Shown: positions 3,392-22,232, counted from the first letter of the stretch. The stretch: 64,000 nucleotides of DNA from an uncultured Methylomirabilota bacterium (GCA_963705305.1 OY970067.1:4160001-4224000), one strand, 5' to 3'. Notes: a model not told the origin generated them from the sequence alone. Made by a program: numbers and translations.

Positions 3392-3433
3392 GCCTGTTGA
3401 AACTCTCTGTCGGTATTCATCGGTTTTCCCCTT

Positions 3434-3928: not shown

Positions 3929-3931
3929 GAC

Positions 3932-4887: not shown

Positions 4888-4989
4888 GGCTGGAGGCCCC
4901 CGGACAAGGCATAGTCAAGCGGCCTTGCGGCGTCCCGAAATGGCGAGGCGAGGCCGAATTTATGCCCGTCTCTGCATCTCTCTCCACAT

Positions 4990-7382: not shown

Positions 7383-7626
7383 GCCGCAAGGGTAGAGACA
7401 CTCCTACCCTTGGAGCAATCCCTTGGAAATTGCGCTCAGTTTCTATTTTCCAGATTTTTTGCGGGAGAGACGGAGGCCCACCGCGTTCAGGTAGCGAATC
7501 TTTCCGCGGAGGCGCTCCCGGGCTTTCGGGTCGGAGGGAATCGTTACGCTGAGGATCTTTCGGGCGACCTGCCACACGTCCATGCCGTCCTGTGTGCCCT
7601 GATATACACGTCGCGCGAGTTCTGGA

Positions 7627-8241
7627 TCAACTTGCGACTTGCCAGACTTCGGGGGCTTCGCTTGTCCCTTCGGACGTTCCTGGGGCTCGCGCGGGTAGTC
7701 GAGCGCTCTCTAGACTGGCAATCTCCAGCCAATGCTTGCGCGTGGGCATTTCGCCGGCTGGCACCTCATAGCGAAACGCACCGGTGATGCGGTCCTCGGT
7801 GATACGAATCGGATTGTCGGGGAGGGGAGTGCCGACCGTCACGGATTTCGGCACTCTCCGAGCCGCTCGGCGGAGACGTTCCCTCATTCCCTCATCTGTG
7901 GCCTCTTTTTCCAGGATGGCCAACGCCGCCTGCTGAGGTAGGAGAGGGCGATCCTCACAGACCCGATGAAACTTCGGGACGTACTCTTTGATGCGATCAA
8001 GTAGGAGCCAGGACAATTCAGCAAGCCGGTCCACTGGCTCGGGCCCCAACGCTTCCCATCGGGGTTCGAGTTTTCGCACGAGCTTATAGACCGGATGGTC
8101 ACACAAATTGAGATGCTCGGCCAGGGCGGCGGCGAAATAGTAGAAATGGCTTCTGACCTGTGGATGCTGCGTAAGCTCTAGAGCCAACTCTGCCGGCCGG
8201 ATAACCGTTCTGTCCAGAAACTTTGTTTGTCTGAGAACCAT
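7627..8241 (-). CDS. Hypothetical protein
   Basis: 204-aa ORF of lower GC with a plausible RBS (ggagag). Confidence 0.55.
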   Translation of the reverse strand: MVLRQTKFLDRTVIRPAELALELTQHPQVRSHFYYFAAALAEHLNLCDHPVYKLVRKLEPRWEALGPEPVDRLAELSWLLLDRIKEYVPKFHRVCEDRPLLPQQAALAILEKEATDEGMRERLRRAARRVPKSVTVGTPLPDNPIRITEDRITGAFRYEVPAGEMPTRKHWLEIASLESARLPARAPGTSEGTSEAPEVWQVAS

Positions 8242-8318
8242 CGCTCTCCCTGTAGAGCTCCCCTGGAGGTCTCGCGGGCCAGGTCGGCAGAGTCCGGCTT
8301 CCGGTCGCCATCAATTAG

Positions 8319-8591
8319 CTAATAGAAGGGCGTTCTGTTCTTGCGCCTTCCCCTGATGTCTGTGGCCTGCTCAAGCTCACGAATCCTTCGATCCTTCTCA
8401 AGCAGTAGTTCCTCAATCCCTGCAATCTTAGTCTTTGCTTGGGCTAGGGCGTCCAACAGTTCGGCCAGTTTCATTTTGCTCTCGGCCTTTTCGGGCGAAG
8501 CATCTGCGCGCCTGATTGACCGGGCGATCCCTGTTGCTGTCTTGATACTCGCCAGGACATCTTGAATGGAGGCCAAGTCCGACATGTCCAT
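8319..8591 (-). CDS. Coiled-coil hypothetical protein of a mobile-element type, possibly truncated
   Basis: LASIKTATGIARSI...KLAELLDALAQAK forms amphipathic helices. Confidence 0.55.
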   Translation of the reverse strand: MDMSDLASIQDVLASIKTATGIARSIRRADASPEKAESKMKLAELLDALAQAKTKIAGIEELLLEKDRRIRELEQATDIRGRRKNRTPFY

Positions 8592-8601
8592 CTCCCTGTC
8601 A

Positions 8602-8623
8602 AAACGTGCCCGCAAACGTGCCC
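8602..8623. repeat. Direct-repeat pair AAACGTGCCC (candidate integrase arm site)
   Basis: Two exact 10-mers at a 12-bp period, about 100 bp inside the att site. Confidence 0.55.
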
Positions 8624-8726
8624 ACGGCGAAAGAAAACCGCCGGAAATCACGCCACTTCAGCGGAAAGCATAGCACATAACCCCTTGTAAATACACGATA
8701 TTGAAAGGGTAGGGGAGGCCTGGCTT

Positions 8727-8774
8727 GGCCTCATAAGCCCTGTGTCGGTGGTTCGACTCCACCCGCCGCCACCA
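8727..8774 (+). repeat. 3' half of tRNA-Met/Ile2 (CAT), the att site of the left-hand element
   Basis: ctCATaa loop, T-arm ggtggttcgactccacc and terminal CCA are present; no D-arm or 5' acceptor strand upstream. Confidence 0.85.
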
Positions 8775-8820
8775 GACGTGATCGCTCGTTGACCCTCGCC
8801 AGAGGCTCTCTGGGATCGCG

Positions 8821-8846
8821 CCGGGAGGACAACCCCCGGTTTTTTT
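8821..8846 (+). terminator. Rho-independent terminator downstream of the tRNA fragment
   Basis: ccggg...cccgg stem followed by a T7 run. Confidence 0.6.
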
Positions 8847-8859
8847 ATTCCCGGACGCA

Positions 8860-9312
8860 TCAGGCGAGGTGCTCGCCCCGGTTGCGGCCTTCGGCCGCCA
8901 GCAAGCGCTGCACGGTGGTTTTCAGCAGGACCAGGGTGGCCTCCGGGTAGCGGAGCAGGAACGCGCGGAATCGCTGGTAATCGAGGCAGAGCAGCACCAC
9001 GTCGGTCGCCGCCTGGAGGGTGGCGGTGCGGGCCATATTCGAGAACATGCCATATTCGCCCAGCAGCTCTCCCCGCTCGACGGTCCGCACCGGCCGGGAT
9101 TGCCCCGGCAATACGACGTTAAGCATGCCGCTGGCCACGACATAGACACTGCCGGAGACCTCGCCCGCCTCGAACAGGATCTCTGATTCCCGCAAATGCT
9201 CCGTCCGCATCATTTCCGCGAGGGTGGCAAGCTCCGCCGGCGGAACGCCCGTGAACACCGGGCAGGCGCCCAGGACACTGGTCTTTTCGGCCATGCTCAG
9301 GGTGGTTCTCAT
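8860..9312 (-). CDS. Stand-alone cyclic-nucleotide-binding domain protein
   Basis: LFEAGEVSGSVYVVASG, GELLGEYG and RTATL motifs; no HTH. ATGA overlap with the ABC gene. Confidence 0.9.
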   Translation of the reverse strand: MRTTLSMAEKTSVLGACPVFTGVPPAELATLAEMMRTEHLRESEILFEAGEVSGSVYVVASGMLNVVLPGQSRPVRTVERGELLGEYGMFSNMARTATLQAATDVVLLCLDYQRFRAFLLRYPEATLVLLKTTVQRLLAAEGRNRGEHLA

Positions 9313-11855
9313 GCTCGCTGAAGCGTGGTGCGGAAGATCTCCGACGCTTCCTCCAGCTCCTGGAACGTGCCGCTGGCCGCCAGCCGGCCGCCATGCATGA
9401 GCTTGATGTCGTCCGCCTCGCGGATGAAATTCAGATCGTGGCTGACGGTGATGACGATCCTGTCTCGCCTCCACTGCCGCAGCAGCTCGGCAACCGCGCT
9501 GCGGCTGGCAGGGTCGAGAGCCGATGTCGGCTCGTCCAGCACCACGATCGGTGTGCGGCGCAAGAGCGCGCGGCAGAGCGCCACCGTCTGGCCCTGACCG
9601 CCGGAGAGGTTGCTGCCCAGCCGCCCGACCTCGCACTCCAGGCCGAGCCGTGTCAGGCAGTCGTTCAACCCCGCCTGTTCGACAAAGCCCAGCAGGCTTT
9701 GATCCAGGAGGCGGCTCGCCCGAGTATTGGGGACCTCCACGACGCCAAAGATCAAATTCTCCCGCCAGGTCAAGCCGGGGTGCACCTCGTCGGCGACAAA
9801 GGGGCGCCAGGCACCCGCCAGGAGCTGCTGCAGCAGCTCGATATCAGCGGCAAACACCTTGCGGGTTTCGGGCGCTCGCAAGGCCTCCACACCTCCATCG
9901 CTCGCTAATTCGGCTAAAGAGCTAGTCAGGCCGATCAGCAACAGCGACAATCCTTGCTTGGGCGACACGGCGGGTTTGTCAGCCAGATCCACGCAGGATG
10001 ATCGCAGCTTCCACAAGGGCTCGCTTACCGAGAAGGGAGAGAGCTGCGCATACACGTGGTAATTGGAGATACTGAGCAGGTGCCGGTTCTCGCGCAGCAG
10101 GCTCTTTCCCAGCGCCATCAGCGCCGAGCGGCTGCCGTTTGGCGGCAGGCGTTCCAGCCGGCGGGCGGCTTTCTTGCTTAACAGCAGCTCCACGCACTTG
10201 GCCCGCTCGCAGCGGCCGCCCAGCAGGCATTCCAGCACCCAGTGCTGCGAGTCCACGCTGCCGTGCTCGAAGGGCAAGACCAGAGCCTGGCACTCGTCCC
10301 GCAGGCGCTGGCGAAGGCTATTCCGCAGCTCGCCGATGCGCGCGGCGATCGCAGGCTGCGCGCCGCCTTCACCCGCCGGCATGTCCAGGGCCTTCAGCCG
10401 GCAAATCTTGCCCAAGCCTGCCCGCTCGACCACCTCCATGTCGGCGGCGGAAAGGGGGATCTCGCCTTCGGTCTGTCCAAAGTAGAGGTTTTCGCGGATC
10501 GTCGTATTCAAGAGGGCCACGGATTGCGGCATGATTGAGAAGAGGGCTGCGCGCCGTCGGTCATCGATCGCCTGGAACGGGAGGGATCCGTAGCGGACGT
10601 CGCCTTCCTGCGCTTTCAGGCGCCCCAGCACCAGTTTCAGCAGGGTGGATTTGCCGGAGCCCGCGCCGCCCACGATGGCGGTCCAGCGATCCGGACTGAA
10701 CACGGTGCTGACGCCGGCCACGCCGCCTTGTTGCGTGCCATCGGGGCTGGTATAGCGATAGGTGACGTTGTCCAGGGTGATCGGCTCGGCCGCCCCCTCC
10801 TGAACTGCCGAGTCTGCCGAGCTACCAGTCTCGACGCTCTGAGTCTCGTACTCAAGGAGCCGGTCCAAACTGACGCGCGCAATCTGGAAATCCAGGCGCA
10901 GGAAGACCAGCTCCGAAGATTCGCTGAACAGCGAGGGCAAGCGCAGCACGATCACCGGCACCAGGGCGAGAGAAAGACCGCTGATCCCCCCGCTCCGCAT
11001 CTGATATACCACCACGATCATAGACGCAAACGCCAGCAGGTACGCGACCGTATTTCTAATCCGCAGAGCCCCGTTGAGCCCGATGTACTTGAGAAACGTC
11101 CTGCTCCGGTCCTCCAGAAGCTGCAGGAACCGTCGCCGGATGTTCTCGTACGCATTTGAAACCTGAACTTCGGGCGCGGCCCGCAGCAGATCCTCGAAGC
11201 GTGACTTAATTCTGTCATCCTGGACGAGATAGTTCTGGTCCATGTTGGCCACTGGTTTGGTCGTTCGCAGCGTCCAAAGAACTCCGACAAGACAGGTCGC
11301 AATGGCCACGAGCGCCAGCCGCCAGTCCTTGAGAAAGAAGAAGACCAGATTGCCGGCCACCAGCAGCGAGCTCCACCAGACCTTGGTTACTCCGAGGCGG
11401 CGCTCACTTACTCGAGAGAGGTCCACGGCCAGCCGGTTCACCATTTCCGCCGGAGAATGACGGCTGAAAAAGGAGTCCTCTTTTCGCAGCAGGTGGAGCA
11501 GGATTTCCGTCTCCAGATCGTCCTTGGTGCGAATGGCGAGCTTGCCGCCGAGACGGGCTCTCCAGAACTCCACCGCGCCCGACGTGAGCCGGGCAGCCAC
11601 GAACAGGCCCAGAAGCAGGAAGGGCAGGCTGATTGCCAGCGAATCGGCGAGCGTGTGCGAAAGTGCCGCCAGGCCGTGCTGGGCAGCGGCAGCCGGCGCT
11701 TGCCCTTGGCCCAGCGATTGCGTCAGCAGGTCGAGCAGATCGTTCTCAACGTAAACAAGCACAGATGCCAGGCTGCCGGCAAGGATCAAGGAGATCAGCG
11801 CCGCACGGTAACGCGGGTGCCAGAGGGCGAACCAGGAAGCCAGCCCCGATTTCAT
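9309..11855 (-). CDS. ABC exporter (TMD plus NBD with a large insertion)
   Basis: N-terminal TM helices, Walker A GGAGSGKS, signature LSGGQ, Walker B VVLDEPT and H-loop VSHD. Confidence 0.9.
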   Translation of the reverse strand: MKSGLASWFALWHPRYRAALISLILAGSLASVLVYVENDLLDLLTQSLGQGQAPAAAAQHGLAALSHTLADSLAISLPFLLLGLFVAARLTSGAVEFWRARLGGKLAIRTKDDLETEILLHLLRKEDSFFSRHSPAEMVNRLAVDLSRVSERRLGVTKVWWSSLLVAGNLVFFFLKDWRLALVAIATCLVGVLWTLRTTKPVANMDQNYLVQDDRIKSRFEDLLRAAPEVQVSNAYENIRRRFLQLLEDRSRTFLKYIGLNGALRIRNTVAYLLAFASMIVVVYQMRSGGISGLSLALVPVIVLRLPSLFSESSELVFLRLDFQIARVSLDRLLEYETQSVETGSSADSAVQEGAAEPITLDNVTYRYTSPDGTQQGGVAGVSTVFSPDRWTAIVGGAGSGKSTLLKLVLGRLKAQEGDVRYGSLPFQAIDDRRRAALFSIMPQSVALLNTTIRENLYFGQTEGEIPLSAADMEVVERAGLGKICRLKALDMPAGEGGAQPAIAARIGELRNSLRQRLRDECQALVLPFEHGSVDSQHWVLECLLGGRCERAKCVELLLSKKAARRLERLPPNGSRSALMALGKSLLRENRHLLSISNYHVYAQLSPFSVSEPLWKLRSSCVDLADKPAVSPKQGLSLLLIGLTSSLAELASDGGVEALRAPETRKVFAADIELLQQLLAGAWRPFVADEVHPGLTWRENLIFGVVEVPNTRASRLLDQSLLGFVEQAGLNDCLTRLGLECEVGRLGSNLSGGQGQTVALCRALLRRTPIVVLDEPTSALDPASRSAVAELLRQWRRDRIVITVSHDLNFIREADDIKLMHGGRLAASGTFQELEEASEIFRTTLQRA

Positions 11856-13231
11856 GCGCGGACACCCTTTAGCCGAACCTTTTCAGTGATGACCCGTAAC
11901 ACTCCTGATTGTACGCTCTCGGAGGCGAGAGCACGGTCGCGGATGCGGTCGCGCAGCTGTTGCAGGAAGGACTCGCAGTATCGCATTGCGTCGAATTGCT
12001 CAGGTTGAAACCGATGCAGGTGCGGACATCCGCCCCCACAGCCGGGGAGTGCGGGGCATTCCGCGCAGCGCTTGTACTGCAACCAGTCGTACATCAGCCA
12101 TGGGACCAGGTTGGCCAAGTTCGTCGGCGTGCCGGTCTCCACCGAGCCGTAGCTTCGCTCCGCCAGTCCGACGTCCTCCGGGCATTTGTACAGCAAACCG
12201 TCCGGTCCGATCACCATGGAGTGGCGTGTTGTGGCGCCGCATCCGATCGGCTCGGGCCGGCACACGTCATCGACAGGCAGGCGCCTCGCTGTGGCCCGGC
12301 GCCGCTCGCGCGTGCTCGCCTGCGCGTAGATCAGATAGGGCATGGCGGTAAACCGGCATCCGCGCGGCCCGCACTCGGGTACAAGAACGTAGGCAAAATG
12401 AATCTTCTGGAGATGCTGGTGCAGCTTGCGTCGGATCAGCGCGTCATACAGCCGGTCGAACCCCGCCGGCTCATCGCGTCCCAGGTTAATCCGCAAACGT
12501 ATGGGAATTCTTCTGGCCGCAAACGCCAGGTTGTCCAAAACCAATTCCGCCGTGGCACGACCGCGCCGGTCGCGCTTTTCAGCCGCGGGAATATCCACGG
12601 TTACCTGGATGTATGTCAACTCGCACGTTTCCAGCCTGCTGACCACGTCGCGACTCAGCAGCGTGCCATTGGTCACCAGCGTTGCGGAGTAGCTCATACC
12701 GGCGTGCTTGCACGCGGGAATCAGCAGCGAGCTGACCCGGGAGATTGTTTTGATCGCAAGGAGCGGCTCTCCGCCGAACCAGCAGACGTTTATGGCCCTC
12801 TTGCCGCTGGCAGCGGTGGCGATATGCTGCACAACCTGGTTTTCCCGCTCCGCGGTCCAGGCCCGTGCCGCCCTGGAAGCTTGAGCGGCACCTTCAAAGC
12901 AGTAGCTGCAGCGCAAGTTGCAGGCCAGCGTCGGAACGAGCGTCACCCCGAGACTGGAGTCGCTGAATTGTCCAGACAGGTAGTGCAGCCGAACGAGATC
13001 AAGCTCATCGACATCCCGGGGAACGAGAAAACCGTGCGACTGGAGAAAGGCCAGACCCTCAGCGGCCTCGGCCTGATCGCAGTCCAACTGGCGGCCGGAA
13101 GCGAGATACTGCGACCATGTTTCCTCCGCGAGTACCACCAACGCCCCGGTGAAGGTGTTGAGGATCGCTTTGCGGTGGCGTGGCAGATCAACCGCCAGAT
13201 TGAATCGCGATGGAGCCCAGACCTGCGACAC
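11852..13231 (-). CDS. Radical SAM/SPASM peptide maturase 1 with an N-terminal RRE-like region
   Basis: CNLRCSYC and WFGGEP; SPASM cysteines CGAT...YKC...CAECPALPGCGGGCP...C. GTG start at 13231 follows aggaagg. Confidence 0.9.
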   Translation of the reverse strand: MSQVWAPSRFNLAVDLPRHRKAILNTFTGALVVLAEETWSQYLASGRQLDCDQAEAAEGLAFLQSHGFLVPRDVDELDLVRLHYLSGQFSDSSLGVTLVPTLACNLRCSYCFEGAAQASRAARAWTAERENQVVQHIATAASGKRAINVCWFGGEPLLAIKTISRVSSLLIPACKHAGMSYSATLVTNGTLLSRDVVSRLETCELTYIQVTVDIPAAEKRDRRGRATAELVLDNLAFAARRIPIRLRINLGRDEPAGFDRLYDALIRRKLHQHLQKIHFAYVLVPECGPRGCRFTAMPYLIYAQASTRERRRATARRLPVDDVCRPEPIGCGATTRHSMVIGPDGLLYKCPEDVGLAERSYGSVETGTPTNLANLVPWLMYDWLQYKRCAECPALPGCGGGCPHLHRFQPEQFDAMRYCESFLQQLRDRIRDRALASESVQSGVLRVITEKVRLKGVRA

Positions 13232-13655
13232 GAATTTCCTTCCTTTGCCGGGACCGTCTCTTGGGCCTTGCCGAAATGGCGACACGGTCACGGCTCCGGC
13301 CCCTCCCGAGTGGACGTCGCCACGAGCCTCCGCACCTCTGACGCCCGGGCGCGGGAGCTGGGCGGGGCGCCCTCCAGCGTGAGAAGCTCGCGCCAAGTCT
13401 GCGAGATCGCGGGGGGTGGTGTGGCGCCAAACGGGTTCGGGGGAATCGAGGTCGGGCGCGCAGGGCAGTAGCCGCTCCACGACACTGCGGCAGGGCTTGG
13501 CCACCCAGGCGGGAGCACACAGATCCTGCTACGGGCGGTGCCGGTCACCGGCGGGGGTAAAGCCGGGGACGGCAGGGAACCGCCGATAGACGACCATTCC
13601 GCAGCATGAAACCCAGCCGCCGGACCAACGGGGTTAACCCGACCCTCTGAAAGCG

Positions 13656-13862
13656 TCAGCCCCTGACTCCGCCGATCGCCGCAAAACCGCAGCCCTGTCC
13701 TTCAACGTCGCCCTTCTTCTTCTTGGGTGCGCGCAGCACCTTGGCGAGATCAGCGACCGACGCCGACTTTTTCACCTGCAGGTCTGTTCCTTCCGGAAAC
13801 ACCAAACTCACTCGGTTCTTGCCCTCAACCACCACTTTCACGCCCTCGGCTTTCTTCACCAT
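13656..13862 (-). CDS. Candidate RiPP precursor peptide (68 aa)
   Basis: Short ORF with strong RBS (aaaggag) between two SPASM genes. Lys-rich N-terminal part; Gly-rich tail DVEGQGCGFAAIGGVRG with a single Cys. Confidence 0.75.
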   Translation of the reverse strand: MVKKAEGVKVVVEGKNRVSLVFPEGTDLQVKKSASVADLAKVLRAPKKKKGDVEGQGCGFAAIGGVRG

Positions 13863-14050
13863 TGCTGTCGCTCCTTTGATTGATCTCGCCCCCGGCGCCT
13901 ATGATCACGGAGACGGCGGCCGCCGCGGGCACCCGCCCGGCGGTCTAGACCCTCCGGCCCGCTGAATCGCCGCAACTGGTAGCACATAACCCCGGATAAA
14001 ACAACAGAAATTCCCTCCTCGGCATCCCTTCGGCCGGCGGTGTTCCGCTT

Positions 14051-15436
14051 TCACCCGCCGTCCGCAAAGAGGGAGCGGATACGATCCAGGGCCTCGGGGT
14101 GAAAGCGGTACAGGAACCTGTGGGTGATGGAGGCGCGGGCAAACTGGGCCCGCATCAAGTCGCACCAGAGCTTCTGCATGGGGTCGCTGCGGCCCGAAGG
14201 CAGCAGAGCGCACTTCTGGCATTGAAACGCGCATCCCCCTCCGCACCAGGCGAAAGCCCAGCAGCGGGCGCACTCTTCATCTGCCGGCCGCACCCTCGGC
14301 ATCGGCAGTGGGGCGCTGGCGTCCAAGGTTTCGCAGTCTCCCAGCGCCGGCACGTCCGCCCTTCCATACAGACTGGGGCAAGGATATACGCTTCCGTGGG
14401 CATCGATGTAGATTTCCCGCCGCCCGCAGCCGCACAGCCCGTCCGGACCTTTCGGTTGGGATGAAATCTGCGCCGCGAAACGCATGTCCACCTCCGGACT
14501 GCCCTCAATCGCGGATTGGACGAAGTATCGGTAAAACTTCGCGCGCTGCAGCATGAGCTCCCGCAGATCGGATTTCGACCACGGGCTGGAATCATTCGCC
14601 CCGGCGGTCAGATACAGGAAGCTGATGCGGCGAAACCCGCGAGTCCGAAGCTCCTTGGCAATGGCAGTCAGATCGGAATTGCCCGGGGTAAGGACGACCT
14701 GCGCATCCACCCTGGCATCCTTGCTCGCCGCGCGCAGCCGCCGCATCCCGCTCAGGGCCGCCTGGTAGGAGCCGGCCCCATCCGGATAGCGGCGGTGCCG
14801 GTCGTGGCCATCCTGCAGCCCGTCAATGCTGATCTGGACGGTCAGGTCCGGCGCCACCAGGTCTTTCGCGAGGGCATCCGTGATCAGGGTGCCATTGGTC
14901 CCGATGCTGAAATGCGGACTCTTGCCCAGCCGGCGGGCCTTGCGGCGGACGGTATTGACCAGAAAGCGGCCGACGGACCAGTTCGCCAGCGGCTCGCCGC
15001 CGAGGAAGGAAATCAGCGGCCTGTCCACGGGGACCGCCAAAATGTAGTCGGCAATGCGCTCGGCCGTCGGCCGATCCAGACGGCTGGAGGGTGCGCAATT
15101 GGCCGAATCAAAGCAATAATCGCAGGCCAGATTACAGCGGCCGGACAGCCGCACCATGAAGGTGTGCGGCCACTGGTGCCCCGACTCGCGCTGTTTCGGC
15201 CGCGTCCTTGGTAGGCCGCCGAGTCCCTGGAGAAAGAAGATTTCCGGCTGCTCGACGGCAAATGCGAGGATGGCCTCTTGGAGCTCCTCCGCTGCGCGCT
15301 GCTCCGGCTGTGCGGCACGCACCTGCCGGCATGCGGGACCCGACGTGCCGTTTCGAATACCCCGAGCCTTTGGTGTGCGGTCTGCCGGTGCCACGCAGGA
15401 CCCTCGCGTCTCCGGACCCGCGTTCCCTTCTCTCAT
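14051..15436 (-). CDS. Radical SAM/SPASM peptide maturase 2
   Basis: CNLACDYC, FLGGEP and ISIDG; SPASM CGCG...YPC...CARCWAFAWCGGGC. Start uncertain. Confidence 0.9.
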   Translation of the reverse strand: MREGNAGPETRGSCVAPADRTPKARGIRNGTSGPACRQVRAAQPEQRAAEELQEAILAFAVEQPEIFFLQGLGGLPRTRPKQRESGHQWPHTFMVRLSGRCNLACDYCFDSANCAPSSRLDRPTAERIADYILAVPVDRPLISFLGGEPLANWSVGRFLVNTVRRKARRLGKSPHFSIGTNGTLITDALAKDLVAPDLTVQISIDGLQDGHDRHRRYPDGAGSYQAALSGMRRLRAASKDARVDAQVVLTPGNSDLTAIAKELRTRGFRRISFLYLTAGANDSSPWSKSDLRELMLQRAKFYRYFVQSAIEGSPEVDMRFAAQISSQPKGPDGLCGCGRREIYIDAHGSVYPCPSLYGRADVPALGDCETLDASAPLPMPRVRPADEECARCWAFAWCGGGCAFQCQKCALLPSGRSDPMQKLWCDLMRAQFARASITHRFLYRFHPEALDRIRSLFADGG

Positions 15437-15601
15437 GGTGCGACCGGAGGCGGTCTCTTGAACGGCGACGATACCATACGACCAGCCGACGGTAAATCCC
15501 CAAGAGGCGCCCCGCCCGGCATGAGGTTCATCTTGACTTTTACTGGGGAATGGCGTACGGCAATGGTGGCTGAAGGCTGACCGTCCGCGTGGGGGTGATG
15601 C

Positions 15602-16267
15602 ATGGCGCCAAAGATCGCGGTACTGCAGGCCTATCTCGGGATTTCGTCTCAGAGCGAGGAGGGCGCGATCCTCCGGCTGCTGATCGAACTGGTGGCCCAA
15701 TGCGTGGGGGCGCAGGAGGGCTCTCTCCTGGTGTTCGATGAAAAGAAGAATGACCTGGTATTTGCCATGACGGTTGGCGACACGTCGTCGGAAAAGGTCC
15801 TGGTCGGCCAGCGGGTTCCGCTGGGACAGGGGATCACCGGGCTGGCGGCGCAGCTGCGCGAGGTGCAGATCGGGGCACCGACCTTCAAGACGCGTCAGGC
15901 CAAGCACCGCGGGGGAGCCCCTCAAGAGCCGCAAGCGGTGCTGGCAGCGCCCATGCTGGTTTCCGACCGGCTGATCGGCGTGCTGACGGCAGTCAGCTTC
16001 GCGCCAGGGAAACGGTTCACCAGCGGCGACGCGCTCTTGTACGGCCGCCTGGCCGCGGTCGCCGGAGTCGTGGTGGATCAGGCGCACCGGCTGCGGGCCG
16101 TCACCGCCCTGCAGCGCGGGCAGCGTCCGCCTGGGGGGATCGGCCGGGCGCTGCGGCTCGAGAACGCCATCGTCGATGCCGTCACGCGGTTGACTCGCTC
16201 GCGGCCGCACGCCAAGAGCGACATTGCCAGGCTGCTGACGGCCGTGGCTGACCTGCTCGAGCCGTAA
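15602..16267 (+). CDS. GAF domain protein
   Basis: GSLLVFD...LVF...VPLGQGITG...LAAPMLVSDRLIGVL...FTSGD matches a GAF pattern. Confidence 0.85.
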   Translation: MAPKIAVLQAYLGISSQSEEGAILRLLIELVAQCVGAQEGSLLVFDEKKNDLVFAMTVGDTSSEKVLVGQRVPLGQGITGLAAQLREVQIGAPTFKTRQAKHRGGAPQEPQAVLAAPMLVSDRLIGVLTAVSFAPGKRFTSGDALLYGRLAAVAGVVVDQAHRLRAVTALQRGQRPPGGIGRALRLENAIVDAVTRLTRSRPHAKSDIARLLTAVADLLEP

Positions 16268-16278
16268 TCGGGGGAGAC

Positions 16279-17040
16279 GTGGCCGCCCGGACGCTGTTGC
16301 ATATCCTCAAGGCGGGATTCAGGGACCTCAGGCGGCGCAGGCGGGAGCCGGTCACGGTGGCCGTCGTGGATAGCGGCATCGACGGCACTCACCCGCAGCT
16401 GGCGGGGCGGATCGTTCGGGCTGTCCAGGTCACCCCGCAGGGCAGGCAGCAGCGGGTCATCGAGAGCCCTGTGCCGAGCAACCAGGATGTCTACGGTCAC
16501 GGCACCGCCGTCGCCAGCATCATCTGCAAGCTTGCACCCAACGCCAGAATCCTCGACGTGCGCGTGCTCGACGCCGAGAACGTGTGTACTGGAGACACGC
16601 TGATCGCGGGCTTTCGCTGGGCGGTCGAGTCCAGGGCCCGGATTATCAACATGAGCCTGGCGGCCAACGCCCGGTTCGCCGCGGCGCTGCGCCAACTCTG
16701 CGATGCCGCCTACCGTCAGAACCAGCTCGTCGTCGCCGCGCGGCGCAACATGCCGCTCACCGACCAGGGCTTTCCCGCCGAGGTGGCCACCTGCATCGGG
16801 GTGGATATTAAGAAGTTGCGGTCGCAATTCGAGCTTATATTTCAGGACAACCACATTATCGAGTTTGCGGCCCATGGCGAGGGAGTGGTGGTGGCTGCAG
16901 CTGGCGGCGGTCACACCACGATGACGGGGACCAGCTTTGCCACGCCCGCGGTGAGCGGCCTGTGTGCGCTGCTGGTGGGCGCGTACCCCGATCTCCGGCC
17001 GTTCGAGGTGAAGAGCGTGCTGCGCGCCTTCGCCGTGTGA
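16279..17040 (+). CDS. Cytoplasmic S8 (subtilisin-like) serine peptidase
   Basis: Catalytic triad motifs VVDSGID, GHGT and GTSFATP; no signal peptide or prodomain evident. Confidence 0.92.
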   Translation: MAARTLLHILKAGFRDLRRRRREPVTVAVVDSGIDGTHPQLAGRIVRAVQVTPQGRQQRVIESPVPSNQDVYGHGTAVASIICKLAPNARILDVRVLDAENVCTGDTLIAGFRWAVESRARIINMSLAANARFAAALRQLCDAAYRQNQLVVAARRNMPLTDQGFPAEVATCIGVDIKKLRSQFELIFQDNHIIEFAAHGEGVVVAAAGGGHTTMTGTSFATPAVSGLCALLVGAYPDLRPFEVKSVLRAFAV

Positions 17041-17097
17041 GGGGGTCGGGCCGAAGGGGCGCCCTGCATTTGTGATGGGCCGAAACAGAGTCATCGA

Positions 17098-17838
17098 ATG
17101 GCGTGCTCTGCCAAGCTGGAGTTGGATCCGAAGAACTTCTTCCGTCTCTCCAACGGACGCCTGCTGACGGCCCCGCCGGAAATCCCGTTCAGGGAAATGT
17201 TCTCCGAGATCGTCGAATCGGGCTGTTACCTGCCTTCGGCCGAATTTCGGATCGGGGCAGGGGAAATCGTGCTTGATATCGGGGCGAACGTCGGCCTGTT
17301 CTCGATGTGGGTCGCCCTGAACGTCCCGTCGGCGAGAGTCTACGCATTCGAGGCTGCCTCCGACAATTATCTGGCGCTGGCCGAGAACGTCCGGAGCAAT
17401 CACCTGACAAGCGTCTCGGTCCACCATTACGCTGTGTCGGACGGCGGCAGCTCCCGGGTAACCCTCTACCGCGGATACCATGGCGGGATTCATTCCATCT
17501 GCCCGGAGTACCGGAATTGGCCTGCTTCGGCGAAAAGGGAGCGCCGGACGGAGAAAGTCCGTGCCATCACGCTGTCGCAGATCTTGCGGCGATTTCAGAT
17601 CGAGCGCGTCGATTTTCTGAAGCTGGGTTGCGAAGGGGCCGAATACGAGATTCTCTTCTCGGCGTCGCGGGCAACGCTCTCGCGGATTCGAAGGATCGTC
17701 GGCGAGTACCACGACCTGGACGCCGAGCGGCACGGAGGAGTCCTGAAGGCGTTCCTGACGCAGAACGGATTTCACACCGCTTTCAAGGCGGCCGGGCGGG
17801 GGAGGCCATGGGGAATATTCGCGGCGCTTTCCCGCTGA
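17098..17838 (+). CDS. FkbM-family methyltransferase
   Basis: VLDIGANVG, VYAFEA and LKLGCEGAE. Confidence 0.88.
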   Translation: MACSAKLELDPKNFFRLSNGRLLTAPPEIPFREMFSEIVESGCYLPSAEFRIGAGEIVLDIGANVGLFSMWVALNVPSARVYAFEAASDNYLALAENVRSNHLTSVSVHHYAVSDGGSSRVTLYRGYHGGIHSICPEYRNWPASAKRERRTEKVRAITLSQILRRFQIERVDFLKLGCEGAEYEILFSASRATLSRIRRIVGEYHDLDAERHGGVLKAFLTQNGFHTAFKAAGRGRPWGIFAALSR

Positions 17839-17873
17839 CCGATCGCAGAGCTCTCCCCGAGACGATTCGCTAG

Positions 17874-19637
17874 ATGATACATTCGATCGTACTGCCGGGG
17901 CGCTTCCCGACCACGTTCTACGCCTATCCGGAGTTCACCCTCCTCACCCGGCGGGTTCACGAAGAGGTCTGCTTCGAGAACCTCAATCTCCTCTTTTGGG
18001 ATTACCTGTTCTCCGCGGATTTCCTGGGATTCCTGCGGCGCCATCTCGGTCCGGCATCCTCCCCGCACTTCGACTTCCTGTCGGCCGTCATCGACTCCGG
18101 CACCATGGCCACGCTCCGCGACCGGAAATTGTTCTATGACGCGGAGCGATACCTGGCTGCCATCTTCTGCCTCGGCGGTTACCTGGGAGCGGCCTCCGAT
18201 CTCCTGCGGCAGATCAGCGGAGGCACCTTGCAGGGGATCTCGCTCTATGGCGTGAGCTACGACACGCGGCGCCCCCTCGGAGAGGTGCTGGCCTATGCCG
18301 GAAGCGACCGCAACCCCTTCATGGATTTTTGCCGGACGCGGCCGGAGCCGATCCGGGAGATCTTCGATGCGGATATCGTCAGCGCCGTGACCTACAATTA
18401 CACCGATTTCCTGCATCTGGGTGTCCTGAGCGAGCGGTACCGGCGGCCCGGCACCAGCGTGTTCGTCCATGGCCACAGCTGGGAGAACAACGCCGTCGAC
18501 TACCTGATCGAACACGCCGGCCGGTATGCCGAGTTCCTCCGGCACATCGACGGCATCGTTCTTGGGGAGGATGACCTCGCCGAGACGTTCAACCGGCTTG
18601 CCGAGGCGGGAGCGACGTCGGGAGTCCACAATCTCTACCGGTTCGGGGACGACCCACCTTCCGACCGCAGCAGCCGGGGCCGGCGGCGCAATCCTCTTGA
18701 TGACCTCGATTTCATCCGCTTGCGCCAGGAGGCGGAGCGGCAGCGCAGCAAGATATTCTCTCCCGAGCTGGTGACCCTGTACCGCCTCTCCGCGCGGGGC
18801 TGCTACTGGAGCCAATGCGCCTTCTGTCGGCACAACAGCCGGCACCCCGGGGGCCCTGACCGTCGGGATCAGCAGGCGGAGGATCCAACCCTGTGGCCCG
18901 TCAGGATGCGCCGGCTTTCCGCCATCTCCCCCGTCCTTGTCTTCTGCGACCAGGGAATCGATCCGGAAGTGGCGGCGGCACTGGCTGCCGCACCCCGGGA
19001 TGCCGACGGCGGGACCACCTGGTCGCTTCGGACGCGAATCGATCCCCGCTGGGATGCCCGCCGTATCGCGACGGTGGCCCGCGGGGGGTGCGCCGAGCTG
19101 ATCTTGGGGATGGAGTCCGTCAACGACGAGACGCTGCGGCGGATGCGCAAGACTCCGCTGGGCGGAGAGGCATACCGTTCCCTGGTAAGGCAGATCCACC
19201 GCGAGTCCGTCTCCTGCGGCATATACAACCATTACTGCATGATCTATGGCTACCCGGGCGAGACCTATGAAGAATGCCGACAGACCCTCGGCTTCCTCGC
19301 GGACCTCGTCCGCAGCGCTCCCAAGACGACCTTCAGCCTGAACCGGTTCCAGCTCTTGTTCAAGTCGGACATCTACAATTCTCCCGAGGCGTATGGGATA
19401 CGCTCGGTGACCAAGGCCCCCTTCCTGTCCAACGCGTTTTGGTATGATGAGCCCGCCAGCACACGCAGCATCGAGCTGGTGGAAAATGGGCAGAGTGACT
19501 TCTATCGGGCAATAGGCTACCGCGAAGATATCCTGACCAACCGGATACTTCTGGAGACGGTTTCAGCCTTCATCAACGACAGCGGCCACGCGCCGCTGCT
19601 CAAAGCCGGCCACCCGAGAAATCCGTTCGTGGCGTAG
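17874..19637 (+). CDS. Radical SAM enzyme with class B/cobalamin-domain-like architecture
   Basis: RGCYWSQCAFC, LGMES...LRRMRK and IYGYPGET; degenerate B12-domain-like IDGIVLGED upstream. Confidence 0.8.
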   Translation: MIHSIVLPGRFPTTFYAYPEFTLLTRRVHEEVCFENLNLLFWDYLFSADFLGFLRRHLGPASSPHFDFLSAVIDSGTMATLRDRKLFYDAERYLAAIFCLGGYLGAASDLLRQISGGTLQGISLYGVSYDTRRPLGEVLAYAGSDRNPFMDFCRTRPEPIREIFDADIVSAVTYNYTDFLHLGVLSERYRRPGTSVFVHGHSWENNAVDYLIEHAGRYAEFLRHIDGIVLGEDDLAETFNRLAEAGATSGVHNLYRFGDDPPSDRSSRGRRRNPLDDLDFIRLRQEAERQRSKIFSPELVTLYRLSARGCYWSQCAFCRHNSRHPGGPDRRDQQAEDPTLWPVRMRRLSAISPVLVFCDQGIDPEVAAALAAAPRDADGGTTWSLRTRIDPRWDARRIATVARGGCAELILGMESVNDETLRRMRKTPLGGEAYRSLVRQIHRESVSCGIYNHYCMIYGYPGETYEECRQTLGFLADLVRSAPKTTFSLNRFQLLFKSDIYNSPEAYGIRSVTKAPFLSNAFWYDEPASTRSIELVENGQSDFYRAIGYREDILTNRILLETVSAFINDSGHAPLLKAGHPRNPFVA

Positions 19638-19666
19638 AAGCTTGGCGGCTCGAGATTCTTCGCAGT

Positions 19667-20965
19667 TCACGGCGAGCGCTCGGTCCCTCGGAACGGGCGC
19701 GCGGCAGTCCCCGGCGTCCCGCCGGGCCGGACCGAGATCCGGGGACGGATTCGCGAGAGCTCCCTCAAGAAGATCAGGCCGCTGAGAAGACACACCCCGC
19801 CCCCCAGGGCGATCGTAGCCGGGGTGCCGATGCGACCGGCGAGAGCGCCCGAACACAGATTGCCCAGCGGCACGGTGCCCATGAAGGACAAGGCGAAAAG
19901 GCTCATCACCCGGCCCCGCTTATCCGCATCGGCAATCATCAGGAGAATGGTGTTGCTGGAGGCCATGATCAGCGTGATCCCGCAGCCGACCATGACGAGG
20001 AGCGCCACCGAGAGGCTGAGCGAGGGCGACAGGGAAAATAGGATGAGTCCGAGGCCGAACAGGCCGGCCCCCAGCACGATCGTCCGATCCAGCCCGAACC
20101 CGGTGCGCCGAGACCCCAGCCAGGCGGCGCCCAGAAGCGCCCCCATGCCGATGGATGCGACCAGGATGCCCAGGGTGTGGGGTCCCCCCTTCAGCACCGT
20201 GGCCGCCATGATCGGCATCAGGACGCCGTACGGGCTGCCGGCGAAGCATATGCACCCAACAAAGAGGAGGACGGCCCGGATCGGGGGAGAAGCGCACACA
20301 TAACGGATCCCCTCGACAAGCGTGGGAAGGACCGGCCCGGATGGGGTCTCTGCGCTTCCCGCCGAATGCCGCAGGGCGAGGAGGGCACCCAGGATGGCGA
20401 GGTAGCTGACCCCATTCGCCAGAAAGCACACCCCTTCGCCCCCCCAGGCAATGACCATCCCGCCCAGCGCGGGGCCGATCAGACGGGCGGAGTCATACAC
20501 CAGGGAGTGCAGGGCGATGGCGCTGGCCAGCTGCTCCCGGCTTTCCACGAGATGCGCGAGCAGCACCTGGCGGGCTGGGGCATCGATGCCGTTGAGGATT
20601 CCGAGGACGCAGCTCAGGCAGAGAATGATAGGAACGTCGAGGCGGCCGGCAAAGACGAGCAGTGCCAGCAGGACAGCCTGCAGCATGGCAAGCGATTGGG
20701 TCGCCAGCATGATCCGGTGCGGACGCACCCGATCGGCGAGGACGCCGGCGAGCAGGGCGGCTGGCACAGCGGGGAGTTCGCCCACGAACCCTACCAGCCC
20801 GAGGATGAGTGCCGAGTGGGTCAGCCGGTACACCAGCCAGCTCATTGCCACCATTTGCAGGAAAGTCCCGATCAGGGAGGGGGCCTGTCCTGCGATGAAG
20901 AGGCGGTAGTTTCTCGATCGGAGGGCCGGCCAGCCCCGCATCAGCGCTCCCCATAAGTCACACAT
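19667..20965 (-). CDS. MFS transporter
   Basis: About 12 hydrophobic segments; GVLADRV and RGRVMSL motifs. Confidence 0.9.
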   Translation of the reverse strand: MCDLWGALMRGWPALRSRNYRLFIAGQAPSLIGTFLQMVAMSWLVYRLTHSALILGLVGFVGELPAVPAALLAGVLADRVRPHRIMLATQSLAMLQAVLLALLVFAGRLDVPIILCLSCVLGILNGIDAPARQVLLAHLVESREQLASAIALHSLVYDSARLIGPALGGMVIAWGGEGVCFLANGVSYLAILGALLALRHSAGSAETPSGPVLPTLVEGIRYVCASPPIRAVLLFVGCICFAGSPYGVLMPIMAATVLKGGPHTLGILVASIGMGALLGAAWLGSRRTGFGLDRTIVLGAGLFGLGLILFSLSPSLSLSVALLVMVGCGITLIMASSNTILLMIADADKRGRVMSLFALSFMGTVPLGNLCSGALAGRIGTPATIALGGGVCLLSGLIFLRELSRIRPRISVRPGGTPGTAARPFRGTERSP

Positions 20966-21097
20966 TGTCACCGCCTCTGTCGCGCGGGTGGAATGAACGT
21001 GTGAAAAGCCACGCCCGTATGCTATCATTCACGAGTTTGAAGCCAATCAATATTTCTGACCTGGCATCATCCATTGCGCCGTCGACGCCGGGTGGCC

Positions 21098-22198: not shown

Positions 22199-22232
22199 GG
22201 GGCGGTCGACGGAGGCGGCTGGAGACGGATCG

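Follow-up and report, generated by a model that had tools for sequence, protein, structure and literature searches.

A nine-gene radical SAM locus shared by a Methylomirabilota-like genome and Verrucomicrobia, probably encoding a RiPP pathway of an undescribed family

Among described systems, the maturation of QHNDH offers an operon logic close to that of the locus reported here: cross-linking by a radical SAM (rSAM) enzyme takes place in the cytoplasm, the leader is cut off by the S8 protease QhpE, and QhpF, an ABC transporter, handles export (PMC7876137). A second point of comparison is provided by the cyclopropyl(glycine) synthases TvgB and TigE, in which a GYW motif is strictly conserved and its Tyr ligates auxiliary cluster I; the N-terminal domain of TigE has been described as an RRE (PMC10878394).

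Here we describe a window of 64,000 nucleotides, the whole stretch of DNA that was analyzed, from an uncultured Methylomirabilota bacterium (GCA_963705305.1 OY970067.1:4160001-4224000). We consider it probable that nine of its genes form a cluster for the biosynthesis of a RiPP that belongs to no described family, and the best reading is a sactipeptide- or ranthipeptide-like pathway with QhpD/E/F-like logic. A literature search for this gene set or precursor, with subscription-only papers and supplements outside its scope, found no paper.

Gene content and recurrence of the locus

The features of the locus, counted from the first nucleotide of the window, are as follows.

8860..9312, minus strand: cNMP-binding-domain-only protein, 150 aa (PF00027, 65.6 bits against a cut-off of 27.5)
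9309..11855, minus strand: ABC exporter, 848 aa, permease and ATPase fused (Pfam domains)
11852..13231, minus strand: SPASM1, radical SAM/SPASM peptide maturase, 459 aa (Cys motifs and TIGR04085)
13232..13655, minus strand: intergenic region between precursor and SPASM1 (DNA alignment)
13656..13862, minus strand: precursor peptide, 68 aa (RBS, dN/dS, family alignments)
14051..~15394, minus strand: SPASM2, second radical SAM/SPASM maturase, ~447 aa (Cys motifs and NCBIfam)
15395..15601, no strand: divergent intergenic region between SPASM2 and GAF, 207 bp, presumed promoters (coordinates)
15602..16267, plus strand: GAF-domain-only protein, 221 aa (GAF_2, 37.3 bits against 28.6)
16279..17040, plus strand: small S8 (subtilisin-like) protease, 253 aa (PF00082 and triad)
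17098..17838, plus strand: FkbM-family SAM-dependent methyltransferase, 246 aa (TIGR01444)
17874..19637, plus strand: rSAM3, radical SAM protein, 587 aa (Radical_SAM and Cx4Cx2C)

The nine-gene cluster at 8860-19637 is intact. Every gene claimed in an earlier note on this DNA was recovered from ORFs, Pfam and NCBIfam at its position and on its strand. Mechanical ORFs of 719 aa for SPASM2 and 550 aa for SPASM1 are over-extended, the actual lengths being ~447 and 459 aa, and SPASM2 starts at either GTG 15394 or GTG 15322. The 4-bp overlaps reported in the note are real, consisting of two ATGA junctions, one between SPASM1 and the ABC gene and one at which the start of the cNMP gene overlaps the ABC stop, with translational coupling kept. 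Its description of a divergent, tightly packed plus-strand run likewise held, the gaps being 11, 57 and 35 bp.

The precursor and SPASM1 are separated by 424 bp, of which ~280 bp are missing in DNA alignments to same-genus loci; the intergenic region occurs in one copy in the genome. An Rfam scan of 8000-21500 at E<=1 gave zero matches, the precursor-SPASM1 gap included, and a promoter and terminator consensus scan (sigma-70) of 13200-16300 gave none exceeding shuffled sequences, the divergent region at 15395-15601 included. Among public sequencing runs, three DNA runs, all of one study, were listed (best word share, 0.30), and no RNA run. The MFS gene at 19667-21028 and the glycosyltransferases on the right were left out of the unit because their adjacency is not conserved elsewhere.

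The nine-gene set recurs in four Verrucomicrobia MAG loci (L012, L095, L104 and L106) at protein identities of 55 to 72%, and eight of the nine genes are found on one metagenome contig (L094). Six genes (FkbM, rSAM3, precursor, SPASM2, GAF and S8) are present on L105, a contig that begins 808 bp before FkbM. The FkbM-rSAM3 pair, with FkbM directly upstream, is present in all 10 loci that reach that side, and GAF is always paired with S8 (L012, L094, L095, L104, L105 and L106). In the four Verrucomicrobia loci the cNMP gene follows the ABC gene, and full-length orthologues of the exporter, 57 to 69% identical, occur in these four and in L094. Because the same genes co-recur in other genomes, the arrangement is not due to chance.

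A five-gene core, rSAM3-FkbM|SPASM2-precursor-SPASM1, stands alone on four other contigs (L009, L010, L091 and L092), and this core only is the form kept by three same-genus-like lineages; L093, which starts inside SPASM2, shows only SPASM2-precursor-SPASM1. On L091, SPASM1 is followed by a 52-aa ABC remnant and then a transposase, which indicates that the short form arose by deletion. The unit includes S8, GAF, the ABC exporter and the cNMP protein, yet these four are subject to loss. On the point raised in the earlier note, whether homologous loci keep the precursor, S8, GAF and cNMP genes together, the four Verrucomicrobia loci do so and the five-gene relatives from the same genus do not.

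These losses raise the question of whether the window copy might be an inactive relic of a horizontally acquired cluster. Mobile-element genes adjoin it, four genes have been lost in congeners, rSAM3 and SPASM1 are each broken across two frames in one related genome (G013), the ~280 bp of extra DNA lies between precursor and SPASM1, and enzyme dN/dS values of 0.15 to 0.52 are rather relaxed. We nevertheless regard a relic as very unlikely, given that all nine ORFs of the window are open with the expected motifs intact, that translational coupling is preserved, and that dN/dS is below 1 for every gene.

The precursor family

An AAAGGAG sequence 8 nt ahead of the precursor ATG serves as the RBS, and the leader shows a dN/dS of 0.07 to 0.18 at a dS of 0.2 to 0.3; for these two reasons we consider the 68-aa ORF, present in one copy in the genome, a real gene. 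In the window, the peptide consists of a ~56-aa leader ending in D-V-E-G-Q, followed by the core and tail G-C-G-F-A-A-I-G-G-V-R-G. The precursors of this branch have a conserved leader of ~55 aa (consensus ..V-V-x-[DE]-G-x-N-x-V-x-L-V-F-P-x-G-T..) running up to a [D/E]-V-x-[G/A]-Q junction, a hypervariable and usually Cys-containing core, and the invariant tail A-I-G-G-V-R-G. An alignment of 17 precursors shows no variation in the leader, at V53 and Q56, or at G64/V66/R67/G68; the stretch between junction and tail varies in sequence and length (4 to 16 residues), tends to be rich in Cys, His and aromatic residues, and in 16 of the 17 has a Cys no more than three residues from Q. The core as a whole is 11 to 25 residues long.

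A profile search of 1.84 billion representatives returned 34 hits at E<=1e-3, of which 29 are 66 to 106 aa long. In a 29-row alignment, made up of 28 short profile hits and the window peptide, Cys follows the junction in 27 rows and the sequence ends in [V/I/L]-R-G in 14; the cores of the 29 short relatives are highly divergent and mostly Cys-rich. The precursor adjoins SPASM1-type genes in every locus except two orphan copies (L096 and L178), and the small ORF is conserved beside the same enzymes in two phyla. A short ORF beside a maturase, a conserved leader, a variable core and purifying selection are thus found together, as is characteristic of RiPP precursors. The leader-dependent, multiply modified peptide pathway that the earlier note had proposed gains support from the conservation of the ORF across phyla and from its conserved leader and hypervariable core.

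Searched against NCBIfam peptide models at E<=1, the precursors gave nothing above noise, and they match no Pfam family; in the ESM Atlas the best score was 0.83, to unnamed clusters. When leaders of type A and type B were compared by hhalign, the probabilities were 1.8% and 12.6%, too low to demonstrate homology, and the common element was the [D/E]-V-x-G-Q junction only. That SPASM2, rSAM3 or FkbM acts on the RG tail was considered and ruled out: in L177 the tail is present and the enzymes are two of the SPASM1 type only, so the tail is independent of the other three.

Some members have no Cys in the core. The widespread natural core E-G-V-R-T-P-A-A-I-G-G-V-R-G is found in G014, in L093 and in the 16 members of cluster P0006, spread over 21 contigs, and P0155 and P0175 likewise have no Cys. 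In the Cys-less lineage, dN/dS is 0.25 for SPASM1 and 0.28 for SPASM2, and because the enzymes are constrained there, a Cys thioether cannot be the sole selected reaction.

That Cys is dispensable while the enzymes stay under purifying selection would also fit an alternative hypothesis, in which the peptide serves as a sacrificial scaffold from whose C-terminal ..G-V-R-G a small molecule or cofactor is built, as with mycofactocin and PQQ, and the variable stretch is a linker. The only invariant core positions across the two phyla are at the extreme C terminus (G64, V66, R67 and G68), and SPASM2 weakly matches the mycofactocin maturase MftC (5.5e-18). We consider this hypothesis improbable. The RG tail is missing in 15 of the 29 aligned members, which retain the leader and Cys-rich cores; the variable stretch is held at 4 to 16 residues of the composition described above; the match to MftC reaches 65 of the 265 bits required; the exporter is nearest to peptide and lipid-A types; and a leader-type S8 protease is present.

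Maturation enzymes, protease and export proteins

Both SPASM proteins have a radical SAM motif and a C-terminal seven-Cys SPASM motif of the form ..C..GxxxxC..Cx2Cx5Cx3C..C, with Cx3Cx2C at residues 104-111 and Cx2Cx5Cx3C at 389-402 in SPASM1 and at 87-94 and 375-388, respectively, in SPASM2. In SPASM1, C331, C350 and C419 are invariant across 29 sequences, and TIGR04085 scores 45.1 bits against a cut-off of 27. Among named families, SPASM1 comes closest to maturases whose partners are Cys-rich peptides, in each case below cut-off (TIGR04463, 183 of 525 bits; Clo7bot, 170 of 600; geopeptide, 154 of 400; CefB, 140 of 600), and its score against the PapB family NF047865 is 90.3 bits (cut-off, 340). 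SPASM2 is matched best by the thioether formers PapB, QhpD and ScfB/CteB, again below cut-off (PapB [NF047865], 158.4 against 340 bits, with the alignment reaching position 317 of 330; QhpD [TIGR03906], 142.7 against 453 bits); nif11 rSAM and the SCIFF maturase follow as named matches, also below cut-off. Among solved proteins, CteB is the one most closely related to both enzymes (1.3e-27 by sequence for SPASM2). Neither protein resembles the anaerobic sulfatase maturases, in keeping with the earlier note: TIGR03942 scores 47.4 bits for SPASM1 and 63.6 for SPASM2 against 349, and the fold match of SPASM1 to anSME spans ~375 columns only, with the N-terminal domain not covered.

An AF2 model of SPASM1 (pLDDT, 88.8) has CteB and then TigE as its best full-length fold matches. 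Both matches cover the N-terminal strand-and-helix domain, which is RRE-like in the model; Pfam searches at E<=10 with the N termini of SPASM1 and SPASM2 gave no matches. A predicted complex of SPASM1 with the precursor scored 0.41 (runs of 0.51, 0.41 and 0.33) against 0.01 for the best of three controls, with contact agreement of at least 41% and partner pLDDT of at least 44. In calibration, 116 of the 157 solved complexes reached the mark, as did 2 of 215 mismatches; at scores of 0.60 or less, the number falls to 18 of the solved complexes but still includes both mismatches. This pass may reflect likeness, since CteB has already been solved with peptide, and we take the prediction as weak support for SPASM1-precursor pairing.

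rSAM3 scores 22.3 bits for Radical_SAM, under the cut-off of 29.5, and has an invariant Cx4Cx2C motif (C310/C315/C318) and a Rossmann-like N-terminal domain. Its family is isolated, with 24 clusters at >=63% identity and the next protein found at 26%. It matches the PhpK family at 4.7e-14, far short of the cut-off, and its sole sequence match in the PDB is AprD4, a cobalamin-free enzyme. The earlier note had called it a class B-like radical SAM enzyme. The top fold matches (AprD4, MgmA, TsrM, TokK, CysS and OxsB; TM, 0.3 to 0.47) are class B-architecture enzymes, albeit from a low-confidence model (mean pLDDT, 57). The motif is Cx4Cx2C in place of the canonical Cx3Cx2C, the B12-binding family PF02310 gave no match, and Pfam searches relaxed to E<=10 on residues 1-300 and 480-587 likewise found nothing. 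A class B-like architecture is predicted for rSAM3 with low confidence, with B12-type C-methylation as a putative function. The gene upstream encodes an FkbM methyltransferase (TIGR01444, 103.4 bits against 37.7).

The protease is an S8 subtilase (PF00082, 99.3 bits against 21.8) with the triad D31/H74/S219 in the motifs DSG at 31, HGT at 74 and GTS at 217. It has no N-terminal hydrophobic stretch and is presumed to be a cytoplasmic leader peptidase. Its best NCBIfam match is QhpE (NF049966), at 107.7 bits against a cut-off of 165. Together with the second-best match of SPASM2 to QhpD and an operon logic that is the same as that of QhpD/E/F (PMC7876137), this suggests an alternative role in which the locus would mature a small protein subunit, as with the QHNDH gamma subunit, and make no free natural product. 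This role is most improbable, as QhpA- and QhpB-like genes are absent from the cluster, both scores are far under their cut-offs, and a hypervariable core of 11 to 25 residues is unfit for a structural subunit.

The ABC exporter comprises an ABC_membrane domain (19-289) and an ATPase domain, matched by ABC_tran and SMC_N/AAA_21 at 381-472 and 725-817, that is split by a ~250-residue insert without a family match; the insert had no Pfam match at E<=10 and scored 0.91 to 0.93 in the ESM Atlas against unnamed clusters only. Its nearest relatives are peptide- and lipid-A-type ABC exporters. The cNMP protein scores 32.9 bits against a cut-off of 161 for TIGR03896 ("bacteriocin-type transport-associated protein"), over the cNMP domain only, and is likely a regulator or partner of the exporter.

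The cNMP domain is also similar to that of Pycsar effectors (3.5e-11). With GAF and cNMP proteins in it, the unit could be read as a cyclic-nucleotide-signaling conflict or anti-phage system with the rSAM enzymes and protease as effectors. In L012 the cNMP gene is followed by one for a RyR-TPR-S-cyclase, with a 46%-identical copy 12 kb off in the window, and the window neighbors include a STAND NTPase and mobile-element genes. However, the cyclase is adjacent in just one of the four Verrucomicrobia loci examined on that side, and PADLOC returned generic matches only (cNMP, rSAM core, subtilase and ABC ATPase), with none for rSAM3, GAF or the peptide. A conserved leader with a hypervariable core and a dedicated exporter are hallmarks of RiPPs rather than of defense, and we see little prospect that this is an anti-phage system.

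Proposed pathway and comparison with known systems

The data show which genes are present, their synteny across phyla, the architecture of the precursor, and the superfamilies and motifs of the enzymes; substrate pairing, bond types, cleavage site and nucleotide control are proposals. We propose the following RiPP pathway. The 68-aa product of 13656-13862 would be the precursor, with its ~55-residue leader bound by the RRE-like N-terminal domain of SPASM1. SPASM1 and SPASM2, as three-cluster rSAM/SPASM enzymes, would then cross-link the C-terminal core, most likely through thioethers from the Cys after the G-Q junction to a carbon in the A-I-G-G-V-R-G tail or to the acidic residue of the junction; this bond type is a guess, because no enzyme reaches the cut-off of any curated RiPP family. 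The FkbM methyltransferase and rSAM3 may add further tailoring, most likely O/N- and C-methylation. The QhpE-like protease would cut off the leader near the V-x-G-Q junction and the ABC transporter would export the product, which is most likely a cross-linked, methylated natural product. The GAF-only protein, with S8, and the cNMP protein, with the exporter, may place processing and export under the control of a cyclic nucleotide, so that the pathway is possibly gated in this way. We know of no previous description of second-messenger gating of RiPP maturation.

The claim that precursor and gene set fit no recognized RiPP class stands, since neither the enzymes nor the peptide reach a curated family cut-off. 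More tentatively, and with more doubt than conviction, we suggest a new RiPP class whose defining features are a ~55-aa leader with the signature ADG-N-LVFP, the V-x-G-Q junction and, for the branch described here, the invariant A-I-G-G-V-R-G tail. In it, three rSAM enzymes would tailor the peptide, the orphan Cx4Cx2C enzyme may perform chemistry new to peptides, at least one modification would not involve Cys, and a cyclic nucleotide would switch leader cleavage through the GAF partner of the protease and export through the cNMP-binding partner of the exporter.

For heterologous expression the cluster is a compact and fully defined target (nine genes, 10.8 kb), and it comes from poorly cultured phyla, represented by a Methylomirabilota-like genome and Verrucomicrobia MAGs. 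It brings together a precursor family outside all curated models, an unusual cluster motif in an orphan radical SAM family, and Cys-less variants, a natural "experiment" that can tell apart chemistry that does and does not depend on Cys. Should the GAF and cNMP proteins gate cleavage and export, this would be a new regulatory principle for RiPP biology; if they do not, the cluster would be another rSAM-RiPP family among many from genome mining. We view it as a good but not astonishing target for natural-product discovery.

With PapB and CteB/ScfB, the locus shares the radical SAM core and seven-Cys SPASM motif, the RRE predicted in SPASM1, and Cys-containing cores. Unlike the substrates of ranthipeptide, SCIFF and sactipeptide maturases, the precursor has no CX3D repeat; precursors of the window type have one Cys or none, compared with six in SCIFF, and the leader and G-Q junction are unrelated to those of SCIFF. 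The Cys-rich peptide systems of Haft (TIGR04463, Clo7bot TIGR04334, geopeptide TIGR04280 and CefB NF038107) match SPASM1 and its paralogues best in full-length HMM comparison, also over the N-terminal domain, but at 140 to 209 bits against cut-offs of 400 to 600, and the window-family precursors match none of the companion peptide models. To our knowledge, these rSAM-SPASM systems are themselves chemically uncharacterized.

The class B enzymes (PhpK, the TIGR03975 RiPP C-methyltransferases, MgmA, TsrM and AprD4) are weak HMM matches of rSAM3 and its top fold matches across both domains of a low-confidence model, and rSAM3 differs from them in having Cx4Cx2C instead of Cx3Cx2C. NHLP/Nif11-type export cassettes (TIGR03896) similarly couple a cNMP-binding protein to a peptide-type ABC exporter, although the window cNMP protein is a single domain of 150 aa and the window exporter has no C39 peptidase domain and carries a ~250-aa insert in its ATPase. 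The precursor tail A-I-G-G-V recalls the TVGG and TIGSVS substrate motifs of TvgB and TigE (PMC10878394); a cyclopropyl-synthase identity was ruled out, as GYW is missing in SPASM1, in SPASM2 and in 29 of 29 SPASM1-family members.

The likeness to QhpD/E/F lies in an rSAM/SPASM enzyme acting on a leader-bearing polypeptide, a small subtilisin-like protease and ABC export (PMC7876137), with QhpE as the best match of the window S8 protease and QhpD as the second best of SPASM2. The cluster differs in having no dehydrogenase subunits and no QhpG, and qhpA/B/C neighbors are absent from the window. Its substrate would be a short hypervariable peptide, and it has two additional rSAM enzymes and a methyltransferase as well as GAF and cNMP proteins.

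A nine-gene locus and its relatives

The genes, places, strands and two 4-bp overlaps named in the earlier note were borne out by ORFs, Pfam, NCBIfam and motif reading. G+C content is ~65% across the region, which crowds mechanical ORF lists; with Pfam and NCBIfam, nine genes were picked out.

Genes of the window locus (all but the small ORF named from Pfam/NCBIfam)
8860-9312, minus: cNMP-binding protein, 150 aa
9309-11855, minus: ABC exporter, 848 aa
11852-13231, minus: SPASM1, radical SAM/SPASM enzyme
13656-13862, minus: small ORF (precursor), 68 aa
14051-~15394, minus: SPASM2, radical SAM/SPASM enzyme
SPASM2/GAF divergent gap, 207 bp, parting the minus-strand from the plus-strand run
15602-16267, plus: GAF-only protein
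16279-17040, plus: S8 protease, 253 aa
17098-17838, plus: FkbM methyltransferase
17874-19637, plus: rSAM3, radical SAM protein, 587 aa

ATGA overlaps are real at both the SPASM1/ABC and the ABC/cNMP junctions. The S8 protease has D31, H74 and S219 and an N-terminus without a hydrophobic stretch, while the FkbM protein passes its family cut-off and is adjoined by rSAM3 in every case. That the window cluster is a relic is very improbable, every ORF and motif being intact, and a defence system, for which PADLOC gave generic matches only, is equally so.

The precursor/SPASM1 gap (13232-13655) holds ~280 bp without counterpart in three same-genus-like loci; this DNA is present once in the genome, and neither an RNA family nor an ORF is evident in it. 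In the ABC exporter, an insert of ~250 residues (~473-724; window 9681-10442) splits the ATPase domain, with the Walker A/Q-loop part on one side and the signature/Walker B part on the other. The insert, which has no Pfam match at E≤10, is retained in all full-length orthologues. To the right of the cluster lie two GT4 glycosyltransferase genes (21074-23342), one with a GT4-conflict match, and a gene for a 1024-aa DUF4062 + NB-ARC/STAND + TPR protein (23353-26427), which elsewhere are not kept beside the cluster.

Related genomes, species genomes and metagenomes were searched with SPASM1, rSAM3 and precursor alignments, and the loci found were compared by tblastn using all window proteins. The nine-gene set is complete in the window and in four Verrucomicrobia MAG loci (L012, L095, L104 and L106; 55-72% identity). 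L094 has eight genes, lacking the cNMP gene; its ABC gene is followed by FkbM-rSAM3, and the contig stops within rSAM3. The L105 contig opens at FkbM and carries FkbM, rSAM3, precursor, SPASM2, GAF and S8. Four loci consist of a five-gene core alone, rSAM3-FkbM|SPASM2-precursor-SPASM1 (L009 and L010, in the same-genus genomes G014 and G013, and L091 and L092), and L093, whose contig starts inside SPASM2, has SPASM2-precursor-SPASM1 only. We read this short form as a deletion product because L091 keeps a 52-aa ABC N-terminal remnant that overlaps the SPASM1 stop and is followed by a toxin-antitoxin pair and a transposase. In L010, rSAM3 (14142-15906) and SPASM1 (10031-11390) are each split over two frames, through either cluster decay or MAG assembly error.

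The Verrucomicrobia loci have two precursor genes each (L104 also a third, truncated), and orphan copies occur elsewhere in the same MAGs (L096 and L178). These loci also have a conserved ~360-aa TPR protein after S8 (L104 15339-18727, L106 15197-19130, L012 8-1090), and the same stretch of L104 and L106 includes, besides an ORF of 133 aa, a gene for a serpin (serine-protease inhibitor); the window has none of the three.

The cluster is rare. Of 251 genomes from the window's phylum, 3 were found to have rSAM3, all belonging to one genus, as were 5 of 401 sampled genomes from the class of the L012 genome. Third-position G+C in L009 (5594-11579) is 0.65-0.77 in cluster genes versus 0.77-0.92 in most larger flanking genes, which mostly fits gain from another lineage; one 126-aa flanking ORF (0.65) is the exception. 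The left flank of the window (252-8241) holds mobile-element genes and several ORFs without a family.

Left-flank genes of the window
252-674: IstB fragment
1086-2222: DDE_3 transposase
5150-6604: AAA_25 ATPase, overlapping the RepB-type primase gene
6589-7182: RepB-type primase

Given this rarity, the G+C contrast and the mobile-element genes, horizontal spread is the simplest reading.

Precursor peptides

The precursor gene, preceded by AAAGGAG 8 nt before its ATG, occurs once in the 5.65-Mb genome. Seventeen cluster precursors align unambiguously, with a conserved leader (..V-K-V-V-x-[D/E]-G-x-N-x-V-x-L-V-F-P-x-G-T-x-L..K..S..K..L..), a [D/E]-V-x-[G/A]-Q junction, 4 to ~16 residues variable in sequence and length, and a C-terminal tail, [T/S/A]-[A/S]-[I/V]-G-[G/A]-V-R-G, in which G64, V66, R67 and G68 are invariant. 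Cys lies ≤3 residues from the junction Q in 16 of the 17. Among the Verrucomicrobia peptides, the long cores follow the pattern C-[W/Y/L]-x-H..(E)-V-R-T-P-[T/S]-A-I-G-G-V-R-G, and a Cys-less variant, E-G-V-R-T-P-A-A-I-G-G-V-R-G, occurs in G014, in L093 and in peptide cluster P0006 (16 members, 21 contigs). By Nei-Gojobori estimates, leader dN/dS is 0.07-0.18 (at dS 0.2-0.3) and enzyme dN/dS is 0.15-0.52 over all comparisons; within the Cys-less lineage (L009 versus L093), SPASM1 gives 0.25 and SPASM2 0.28. With enzymes under purifying selection beside a Cys-less peptide, one or more of the reactions under selection must proceed without Cys, and may take place on the invariant tail.

A profile of the 17 precursors, searched against 1.84 billion representatives, gave 34 matches at E≤1e-3, 29 of them 66-106 aa long; five long proteins with partial repeated matches were set aside. 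In an alignment of 28 relatives and the window peptide (cluster P0183, which lacks the junction, was dropped), G14, N16, F22, P23, L43, V53, G55 and Q56 vary little or not at all, and Cys occurs past the junction in 27 of the 29 rows, up to about ten times. A common leader followed by free-running cores, as seen in these alignments, marks a family of RiPP precursors, for which Pfam and NCBIfam have no matching model. The tail, ending in [V/I/L]-R-G, is present in 14 rows and missing from 15, which makes it unlikely that the peptide is a scaffold whose invariant C-terminus is made into a small molecule.

A second small-ORF family (type B) adjoins SPASM1 paralogues in two MAGs, one of Planctomycetota (L011) and one of Alphaproteobacteria (L013), and within L012. 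Its pattern is M-S-I-L-I-K-S..Y-Y-E-I-P..[D/E]-V-A-G-Q..C..K-K-S-L-W-A-S-C-L.

Type B peptides (56-69 aa, Cys-rich)
L011, 9490-9699, minus
L012, 6473-6643, plus
L013, 249-458, plus

The junction is common to type B and window-like (type A) peptides; comparison of their leaders did not demonstrate homology. rSAM3 is absent from the genomes holding L011 and L013. Next after the maturase, L011 has a Peptidase_M55 (D-aminopeptidase) gene; L013 has a DynA/anSME-like radical SAM gene and an ABC exporter (634 aa) largely without the insert. L177 (Brocadiia MAG) encodes a type A-like precursor that contains five Cys and has the tail A-I-A-G-V-R-G; after its gene come two SPASM1-type genes and no other cluster enzymes. 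The SPASM1 family is thus this leader's constant partner, and the RG tail has no specificity for SPASM2, rSAM3 or FkbM.

The radical SAM enzymes

SPASM1 and SPASM2 alike have Cx3Cx2C and the SPASM core Cx2Cx5Cx3C. The SPASM1 family comprises ~40 clusters above 35% identity, below which matches drop to generic SPASM proteins. Its top curated matches (TIGR04463, Clo7bot, geopeptide and CefB) are maturases paired with Cys-rich peptides; these alignments begin at the extreme N-terminus, with scores far under the cut-offs. The AF2 model of SPASM1 (pLDDT 88.8) matches CteB (TM 0.64-0.69) and TigE (TM 0.64-0.65) over ~470-490 columns, N-terminal strands and helices included, whereas anSME is matched across ~375 columns only. 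The N-terminal domain of TigE is described in PMC10878394 as an RRE common to CteB; the GYW motif, given there as diagnostic of cyclopropyl synthases, was looked for at the locus and is absent. The curated families nearest SPASM2 are PapB, QhpD, the nif11-type maturase and the SCIFF maturase, and its nearest solved protein is CteB (1.3e-27). QhpD, NxxcB and PapB are included among non-alpha thioether formers in a review (PMC10114670).

Complex prediction for SPASM1 and the precursor scored 0.41 versus 0.01 for the best control, with at least 41% of contacts in common between runs and partner pLDDT of at least 44. Of 157 solved complexes, 116 reached the mark, as did 2 of 215 mismatches; only 18 of those solved complexes, but both mismatches, did so at ≤0.60. 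The prediction weakly supports the pairing and may owe its pass to likeness, CteB having been solved with a peptide.

The rSAM3 family is tight and isolated (24 clusters at ≥63% identity; the next match, at 26%, has a B12-binding domain), and its members are "hypothetical protein" in NCBI sources. C310-x4-C315-x2-C318 is invariant in 19 sequences, the Radical_SAM score is under the Pfam cut-off, and Pfam detected no B12-binding domain. AprD4 is the sole PDB sequence match, and the top fold matches of a poor AF2 model (pLDDT 57) are AprD4, MgmA, TsrM, TokK, CysS and OxsB. The earlier description of rSAM3 as class B-like is thus reasonable as a reading of modeled fold; cobalamin use and methyl transfer are putative.

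A proposed pathway and known systems

PMC7876137 describes QHNDH maturation: QhpC is cross-linked by QhpD while in the cytoplasm, loses its 28-residue leader to the S8 protease QhpE and is exported through the ABC transporter QhpF. The logic of the cluster most likely parallels this by analogy. We propose that SPASM1 would capture the leader; SPASM1 and SPASM2 would form cross-links, which are most likely thioethers made from the Cys close to the junction; methylation or related tailoring would fall to rSAM3 and FkbM; S8 would cut near V-x-G-Q; and the product would be secreted through the ABC exporter. The Cys-less variant is the main weakness of this mechanism. Maturation of an enzyme subunit as in QHNDH is the least probable alternative, with a hypervariable core and no partner genes at the locus.

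The GAF-S8 and ABC-cNMP pairings are kept across phyla, which suggests that processing and export are gated by cyclic nucleotide. In L012 the cNMP gene is directly followed by a RyR-TPR-S-cyclase gene (14206-16560), and the window encodes a 778-aa RyR + TPR-S + adenylate/guanylate cyclase protein (31299-33635, minus) that is 46% identical to it. This cyclase may be the nucleotide source for the GAF and cNMP proteins, which is only a lead, since a different gene occupies its place in the three other Verrucomicrobia loci that were examined.

The precursor family, the orphan Cx4Cx2C radical SAM protein paired with FkbM, and the GAF and cNMP partners fall outside curated families (Pfam and NCBIfam for the precursors) and the literature open to search. 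In kind, a radical SAM/SPASM RiPP cluster with a protease and an exporter is already known.
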